The notes below the pieces were generated by a model. That model worked only from the letters and a program-made list of their open reading frames with translations, was not told the DNA's origin and did no database searches. A stretch of DNA of 64,000 bases from Octopus vulgaris (lineage: Eukaryota). The DNA lies in NCBI GenBank assembly GCA_951406725.2, contig OX597830.1, forward strand, positions 17,422,001 to 17,486,000. Reading direction: 5' to 3'. The translations under genes were made by a program, and so were the position numbers. Below are positions 6,187 to 6,777 of the stretch, piece by piece (position 1 is the first letter of the stretch; each line of letters begins with the position of its first letter).

Positions 6187-6777
6187 TACATTATTTACAT
6201 TATTTACATTCTACGCATATTTGTCATCATCTTGTTTGTTGTTAACACGTTTCGGCTGATATTTCGAACCTGGGTTCTCATTCCTAAGATATTTTTCCAT
6301 GTTATTATTATTATTATTATTATTATTATTATTATTATTATTATTATTATTATTATTATTATTATTATTATTATTATTATTATTATTATTATTATTATTA
6401 TTATTATTATTATTATTATTAATACTGTTGTTCAGGTCACTGCTTGGAATCGAACCACTAGGACATATGCCCGTGGGCATATGATGTAGTGGTTAAGAGC
6501 GCGGGCTACTAACCCCAAGATTCCGAGTTCGATTCCAAGCAGTGACCTGAATAATAACAACAACAACAACAACAACAACATCAACAACAACAATAATAAT
6601 AACATCGAAAAAATATCTTAGGAATGAGAACCCAGGTTCGAAATTTCCCCCAGACACCTGATGAAGGCTGGAGGGTATATCAGTCGAAACGTTGTGTTAA
6701 CAACAAACAAGATGAGGACAAATATCCGTCGAATGCAAATAATGTACATAATTCCTCATTTCTTAAATATAGAACTG
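6187..6777. mobile_element. tRNA-headed, hammerhead-containing element inserted as a head-to-head inverted pair
   Basis: 6187-6456 is the deleted reverse complement of about 6526-6750; hairpin CATATGCCC-GT-GGGCATATG at 6464-6483; A/B boxes at 6482-6536; hammerhead at 6653-6698. Confidence 0.8.
6653..6698 (+). ncRNA. Minimal type I hammerhead ribozyme
   Basis: GACAC-CTGATGA-A-GGCTG-loop-CAGTC-GAAA-CG-TT-GTGTT; the inverted copy reads CAGCC-GAAA, which supports stem II. Confidence 0.7.

Follow-up and report, generated by a model that had tools for sequence, protein, structure and literature searches.

A two-armed repeat insertion, bracketed by probable target-site duplications (TSDs), lies between positions 6176 and 6790 of the window, by which we mean the whole 64-kb stretch of DNA analyzed here (G000:C17:17422001-17486000, from a 2.8-Gb genome in 227 contigs; all coordinates are positions within this stretch). 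Its plus-strand arm begins with a tRNA-derived head (6475–6550) that carries A box-like (6482–6492) and B box-like (6525–6535) segments. The head is followed by an (AAT/AAC)n tract (6550–6602), which varies in length among copies and is often interrupted by other retroelements, by a minimal type I hammerhead motif of the kind found in Penelope-like elements (PLEs) (6653–6698, with a predicted cut 3′ of nucleotide 6693), and by a 3′ region or PLE “tail” (6699–6778), in which the family has a short end point near 6752 and a long one at 6778. On the same strand, an ATG at 6624 opens a frame that extends to 6776, overlaps both the hammerhead and the tail, and corresponds to the first 51 codons of a PLE ORF. 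The inverted arm (6188–6474, minus strand) comprises the head start, an internally deleted head, a long (AAT)n tract, the mid region, the hammerhead, and a short tail end that falls at about tail position 52. A 34-nt deletion through the 5′ half of this second hammerhead leaves it dead.

At the inversion center is a 9-bp hairpin (6464–6483; CATATGCCC-GT-GGGCATATG) that derives from the element’s own GCCC-AC-GGGC sequence, the native loop orientation being that of the minus strand. The region from 6440 to 6500 folds with a z of −4.32 relative to shuffles. The probable left (6176–6187) and right (6779–6790) TSDs, both read on the plus strand, are degenerate 12-mers that match at 9 of 12 positions and share the exact 8-mer AAAGTAGT at 6180–6187 and 6783–6790; the family mode for such duplications is 11 to 13 nt. 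The left duplication sits in the AT-rich 3′ tail of an older SINE-like repeat (5769–6187) with a different tRNA-like head, and insertions L109, L130, and L162 landed in what appears to be the same repeat. An earlier sequence-only reading of this locus had named the tRNA-like head with its two boxes, the internal repeat tract, the hammerhead, the short tail, the deleted inverted copy, and the hairpin, all of which are borne out. It had also called the unit noncoding and seen no evident TSD, and these two statements are contradicted by the 51-codon frame, which matches the N terminus of a full-length PLE protein, and by the flanking 8-mer.

The assignments of the head and the hammerhead rest on pattern and alignment; automated searches and folding gave negative results. 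Rfam returned neither a tRNA nor a hammerhead match in the window and three loci, ARAGORN called no tRNA at the head with default settings and gave mixed anticodons with relaxed settings, and the predicted folds of the monomer hammerhead (z −0.23) and of the head are no more stable than those of shuffles. A dimer cofold yielded no informative structure. The hammerhead pattern comprises stem I (GACAC/GUGUU), CUGAUGA with one extra A, a 6-bp stem II, GAAA, and the palindromic AACGUU of stem III. Two of these traits, the palindromic stem III and the additional base that follows CUGAUGA, are features of the PLE motif as far as PLE hammerheads are characterized in PMC4209133. A 25-mer from the hammerhead has 3,921 exact matches genome-wide versus none for the reversed control, which shows that the motif is not a chance occurrence. 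For the head, the sister copy in L105 forms an almost gap-free alignment with a tRNA-Arg(TCG) gene of the same genome, which is the best of 30 tRNA loci (z 6.3) and is followed by tRNA-Ala loci (z 6.1 and 5.5). Since these 30 loci cover only some isoacceptors, we name the parent tRNA tentatively. The head is also present in a subfamily that has diverged and whose mid region differs (L037 and L063), which indicates that its capture is older than the subfamily split; the A box of L037 resembles the tRNA-Arg(TCG) gene more closely.

The PLE identity of the unit is close to certain, and we interpret the locus as the 3′ end, or pseudo-LTR (pLTR), of a Poseidon-type PLE inserted in two-armed form. 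The translation of 6624–6776, which contains no stop, matches the N terminus of the full-length PLE protein P0019 across the hammerhead (pairwise E 2e-4, with 11 of 20 residues identical), and this frame continues straight into the ORF in other copies. The tail runs into coding sequence in 2 of the first 30 loci, and 15 more loci contain the tail-to-ORF junction. At the other end of the element, 27 of 30 loci found by an endonuclease-region search have a same-strand head downstream (L048, L056, and L069 do not), mostly about 150 nt behind the endonuclease region and about 40 nt past the stop codon, placing it in the 3′ UTR of ORF-bearing copies. The order in long copies is thus ORF, stop, head, (AAT)n, hammerhead, and tail. 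A near-full 2.6-kb copy (L228), interrupted by stops and frameshifts, contains an N-terminal domain (36 percent identical to P0019), a reverse transcriptase (RT) domain (RVT_1, E 5.8e-8), and an endonuclease (EN) region ahead of its head, hammerhead, and tail. In L228 and L307 the RT is followed by this C-terminal region, which was assigned by its alignment to the Pfam GIY-YIG region of P0066 (E 2e-13 for L228), a direct Pfam GIY-YIG match being absent.

Translations of L228 and L307 have no CxxC zinc-finger linker to separate RT from EN, in contrast to Neptune and Nematis, and this points to the Penelope/Poseidon clade; the pLTR with a minimal hammerhead is another feature that the element shares with EN+ PLEs. 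The linker is present in other PLE families of the genome (L337–L339). Protein relatives are 57 to 69 percent identical. A search of the family for an intact ORF found none, the longest open stretch being 569 aa (L307), and all copies examined are broken or truncated. Among metagenome contigs searched for relatives, one distant PLE was recovered (L336, 35 percent) and no match to the head. Several other PLE families of the genome (L337–L348) have long intact ORFs of up to 796 aa with a CxxC linker, are Neptune-like, and are apparently younger.

Extrapolation from the 3,921 hammerhead matches at about 5.5 percent divergence gives a rough estimate of 16,000 arms, and sequence of the L228 copy is present in sequencing runs of five organisms (shares 0.20–0.62). 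For insertion anatomy, we used 89 insertions, drawn from 95 of the first 100 hammerhead-pattern places listed on C1; these represent 90 loci, from which one duplicate was dropped. Several of the other locus sets are best matches rather than random samples, and the ordered loci L136 to L138 are possibly segmental duplicates. The head and the hammerhead occur together in 24 of 30 position-ordered head loci, and thus their predicted association in other copies holds; in the remaining six no hammerhead lies within 900 nt, and four of these are PLE-type or interrupted copies. This comparison served as a search for a separate SINE having the same head and another body. In the other two loci, the near-duplicates L263 and L264, which are 5 kb apart, unrelated sequence follows the head and AAT tract, and either truncation or a stand-alone short form could account for them.

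As had been anticipated, 5′ inversion is the usual state: an inverted arm lies within 1,300 nt in 55 of the 89 insertions, and L137 and L138 have one at a greater distance. The 3′ ends cluster at tail positions 45–52 and 77–78, giving two end points 25 to 33 nt apart, one per arm, and a long and a short 3′ end are paired in 41 of 51 two-armed insertions. The same two ends appear in reads from organism B as loose ends at 4608/9 and 4642/3 of L203. TSDs of 8 to 16 nt flank 33 of 48 two-tail insertions, whereas shuffled pairs give 5 of 281; they are mostly 11 to 13 nt and AT-rich (22 percent GC). One-armed insertion classes have a TSD in only 5 of 40 cases, and the one insertion that has no tail end was excluded from these counts. 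The two arms of an insertion also share sequence variants (17/17 and 10/10 at two sites and 9/11 at a third), which indicates that both were copied from one template or one source locus and is compatible with either twin priming or fold-back. For the anole PLE PAc, the available text of PMC11167929 describes two RT start sites that explain the pairing of long and short tails, an ORF that starts in the hammerhead, and a requirement of the RT for the first 172 nt of the ORF.

We examined the predicted hammerhead cleavage site at 6693 as the end of the element, and this assignment is ruled out by copies that end 59 to 85 nt downstream. We infer that the hammerhead is inherited PLE anatomy and that copies are made from uncut RNA. 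Most of the 89 insertions are single or inverted rather than tandem. A headless tandem derivative does exist and is a retrozyme-like offshoot of the same PLE (L029, L030, L035, and L045): its unit of about 275 nt includes the mid region, hammerhead, tail, and first 117 nt of the ORF, with a shared junction.

The family has a sharp 5′ boundary at the head. Exact 25-mers have 660 genome-wide matches in the endonuclease region, 765 at the ORF end/UTR 14 nt before the head, 4,332 in the head (a count that allows for CpG decay), and 3,921 in the hammerhead, so that abundance rises 1.2-fold over 160 nt and then 5.7-fold over 60 nt. The furthest 5′ reach of the 89 insertions is the head start in 36, the upstream ORF or UTR in 15, the inside of the head in 15, the AAT tract in 14, and a position further down in 9. 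Thus, 36 of the 51 insertions that reach the head start end there, versus 2 of 15 within the next 149 nt (P 1.6e-4). The boundary falls 7 to 14 nt upstream of an intact A box, and 2 to 7 nt upstream of tRNA position +1 are retained in 21 of 33 arms by strict pattern match. With tRNA-type promoters, the RNA polymerase III (Pol III) start falls 7 to 14 nt before the A box.

We consider a short RNA initiated at the head to be the best explanation of this 5′ pile-up, and we regard a SINE-like short form nested in its own driver as likely. Our favored model, which we hold to be probable, is that the tRNA-derived module in the 3′ UTR serves as a Pol III promoter for a short RNA that is copied in trans by the PLE’s own RT and GIY-YIG protein. 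An internal tRNA-Arg-like promoter at the head would give rise to the short RNA, and the PLE protein would cut the two target strands at points staggered by about 12 nt. Each strand would then prime one cDNA, with the two tail sites of a single template or source locus as starting points, in the manner described for PAc in the available text of PMC11167929. At −7 to +1 of the head the RT would reach the 5′ terminus of the RNA and run off, and microhomology would then join the cDNAs, sometimes via the GCCC/GGGC hairpin as in the window copy. In keeping with this model, the window unit contains no T4 terminator. The sequence-only reading had proposed that PLE machinery mobilizes the unit, and this is supported.

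Several observations count against a short head-initiated RNA. An intact same-strand head lies directly upstream in only 1 of 17 ORF-start loci (L066), L030 containing a separate partial unit, so source loci with the order head, tail, and ORF are rare in the sample. In L036, the first head bases and a deletion precede the hammerhead, tail, and ORF. The reported requirement of the PAc RT for the first 172 nt of the ORF (PMC11167929, in its available text), the predicted RNA hairpin at the head start (−7.6 kcal/mol), and the failure of Rfam and ARAGORN to recognize the head also weigh on this side. RNA mapping on L203, which covered organisms A and B and included two raw RNA runs from organism B and two contig sets, showed both strands equally and no pile-up of starts or ends; because the cDNA libraries were standard and thousands of copies lie in introns, this pattern speaks neither for nor against Pol III use or self-cleavage.

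The GCCC-AC-GGGC hairpin could alternatively produce the boundary during copying of a long RNA, either by stalling the RT or by letting the cDNA fold back, the tRNA segment being a passive old insertion. The hairpin is situated exactly at the boundary, forms the inversion center in the window copy and many others, and has a predicted, if modest, RNA stem. We nevertheless find this explanation distinctly improbable. Of the 28 inverted insertions that have an arm stopping at the head start, only 6 have both arms there and 22 have a partner arm cut at another position, which indicates that the boundary does not require fold-back, and 8 noninverted insertions likewise end there. The 55 long ORF-bearing insertions are also informative: 29 have no inverted arm nearby, 16 have an arm cut downstream of the head, 2 have one that stops at the head start, and 8 have one that reads through. 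The second arm therefore passes the head start in 8 of 10 long insertions, whereas 42 of 59 arms stop there (P 0.003, a comparison that rests on 10 arms), and this makes two template classes likely. A block at the hairpin should stop the arms of long insertions as well, and thus a separate short template that starts at the head is the better reading. Such an RNA end could also be made by a Pol II start in the pLTR or by RNase P-like cutting of the tRNA-like fold. Both routes predict an identical boundary, and PLE start sites in the pLTR are described for Drosophila virilis Penelope and Chlamys-3 in the available text of PMC8557442. We strongly doubt them, because the boundary coincides with the Pol III start position upstream of an intact A box, a +1 cut by RNase P would remove the 2 to 7 nt retained in most arms, and the head folds no better than shuffles.

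The sequence-only reading had envisaged a separate nonautonomous SINE that parasitizes PLE machinery. In our analysis the head is part of the ORF-bearing PLE itself, where it occurs without diagnostic differences, and hence the unit is not a separate family that shares only its 3′ end with its driver, as a SINE2 would be. The 61 ORF-linked and 108 head-start arms have an identical majority sequence and share the main polymorphisms at similar frequency; they show no fixed diagnostic difference, and a subfamily split between short and long copies was not found. A distinct self-propagating lineage, born from the PLE 3′ end and now parasitizing the PLE, would fit the excess of short head-start copies over ORF-linked copies (about 5:1) and the observation that in two-armed insertions the long arms read from 3′ tails, which suggests head-to-tail units as possible templates. 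Head-start arms are also slightly nearer the majority (0.945 versus 0.931), a gap that may stem from locus selection. Given the shared polymorphisms, we give such a lineage little credence.

It is unlikely that the tRNA module instead promotes the whole element, with Pol III transcribing a 2.3-kb ORF kept free of T4 runs and also spawning the short form. On its sense strand, the majority-state ORF built from 111 segments is free of T4 runs, whereas 2.8 to 4.6 are expected (P 0.004–0.074 depending on the null, in a post hoc test), and 11 ORFs of other PLE families in the same genome contain 55 versus 59.7 expected. Decayed single copies do contain T4 runs (three in L307 and one in L311). The lack of T4 in the majority-state ORF gives no more than a hint that Pol III may read the whole element.

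In its general plan the octopus element resembles EN+ PLEs as these appear in the available texts of PMC11167929 (anole PAc) and PMC8557442: a single ORF with RT and C-terminal GIY-YIG, a hammerhead that overlaps the ORF start, a pLTR, an inverted 5′ arm, a one-sided 30- to 40-nt tail from two RT start sites, and AT-rich targets. It differs by having in its 3′ UTR an A/B-box module of tRNA origin, at which most copies have a sharp 5′ boundary; both features are absent from those descriptions. A small-RNA-derived Pol III promoter inside a retroelement terminal repeat is known from TRIMp3 elements (Cassandra, Helenus, and Ajax), for which PMC10886601, in the text available, proposes an origin by SINE insertion into the terminal repeat. 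TRIMp3 are nonautonomous LTR elements, whose autonomous partners are expected in the same text to use Pol II and not to share the repeat, whereas the octopus module is part of the very PLE that bears the ORF. Animal non-LTR retrozymes are likewise short mobile units with a type I hammerhead related to PLE pLTRs (PMC7229834; bioRxiv 10.64898/2026.07.22.740005, both as available). Retrozymes form tandem arrays and yield circles by double self-cleavage, whereas most copies of the octopus unit, which has a tRNA head, are monomers or inverted pairs, and the window copy has one intact hammerhead motif. The available text of the preprint does not mention tRNA or Pol III.

The tRNA head with A and B boxes, the length of about 300 nt, the high copy number, and the TSDs are shared with SINE2 families, from which the octopus unit differs by a PLE pLTR in place of a LINE tail, by its two-armed insertions, and by the presence of the head in the autonomous partner. 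The schistosome SMα repeat is of tRNA origin and is transcribed by Pol III. It too is SINE-like and carries a type I hammerhead (PMC8490949), which is canonical rather than minimal (PMC4209133), and an ORF-bearing partner with the same head is not described in the available text of PMC8490949. The octopus repeat annotation in PMC13282606 includes SINE and Penelope families, its available text does not contain the word ribozyme, and its supplements may include the present family. A literature search that covered largely titles and abstracts, with Repbase, Dfam, and most subscription papers beyond its scope, found no description of a tRNA-headed PLE.

If our favored model is correct, the element would exemplify a route for SINE birth inside its own driver and a PLE counterpart to Cassandra and Helenus. 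It bears on which promoter PLEs use and on whether PLE enzymes mobilize Pol III RNAs. The two-site priming of PAc in vitro also gains genomic support from the thousands of two-armed insertions, which have TSDs of about 12 nt and two fixed 3′ ends. For annotation, such copies would be labeled SINEs even though they are PLE ends.

A few further observations concern neighboring repeats. Another fragment of this family, 60 nt long, lies in the window (4511–4570, minus strand); it includes the hammerhead stem I end and short tail and is 96.7 percent identical. Further repeat families that have a tRNA head and A and B boxes occur at 7273–7400 and at 9880, 21831, 24341, 30803, and 45692, and ARAGORN called one tRNA-Thr (48845–48916). 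In L009, L015, L016, L026, and L038, the element’s (AAT)n tract contains the 3′ ends of another LINE, which we take to resemble the (TAA)n-targeting elements of the Dong/R4 type.
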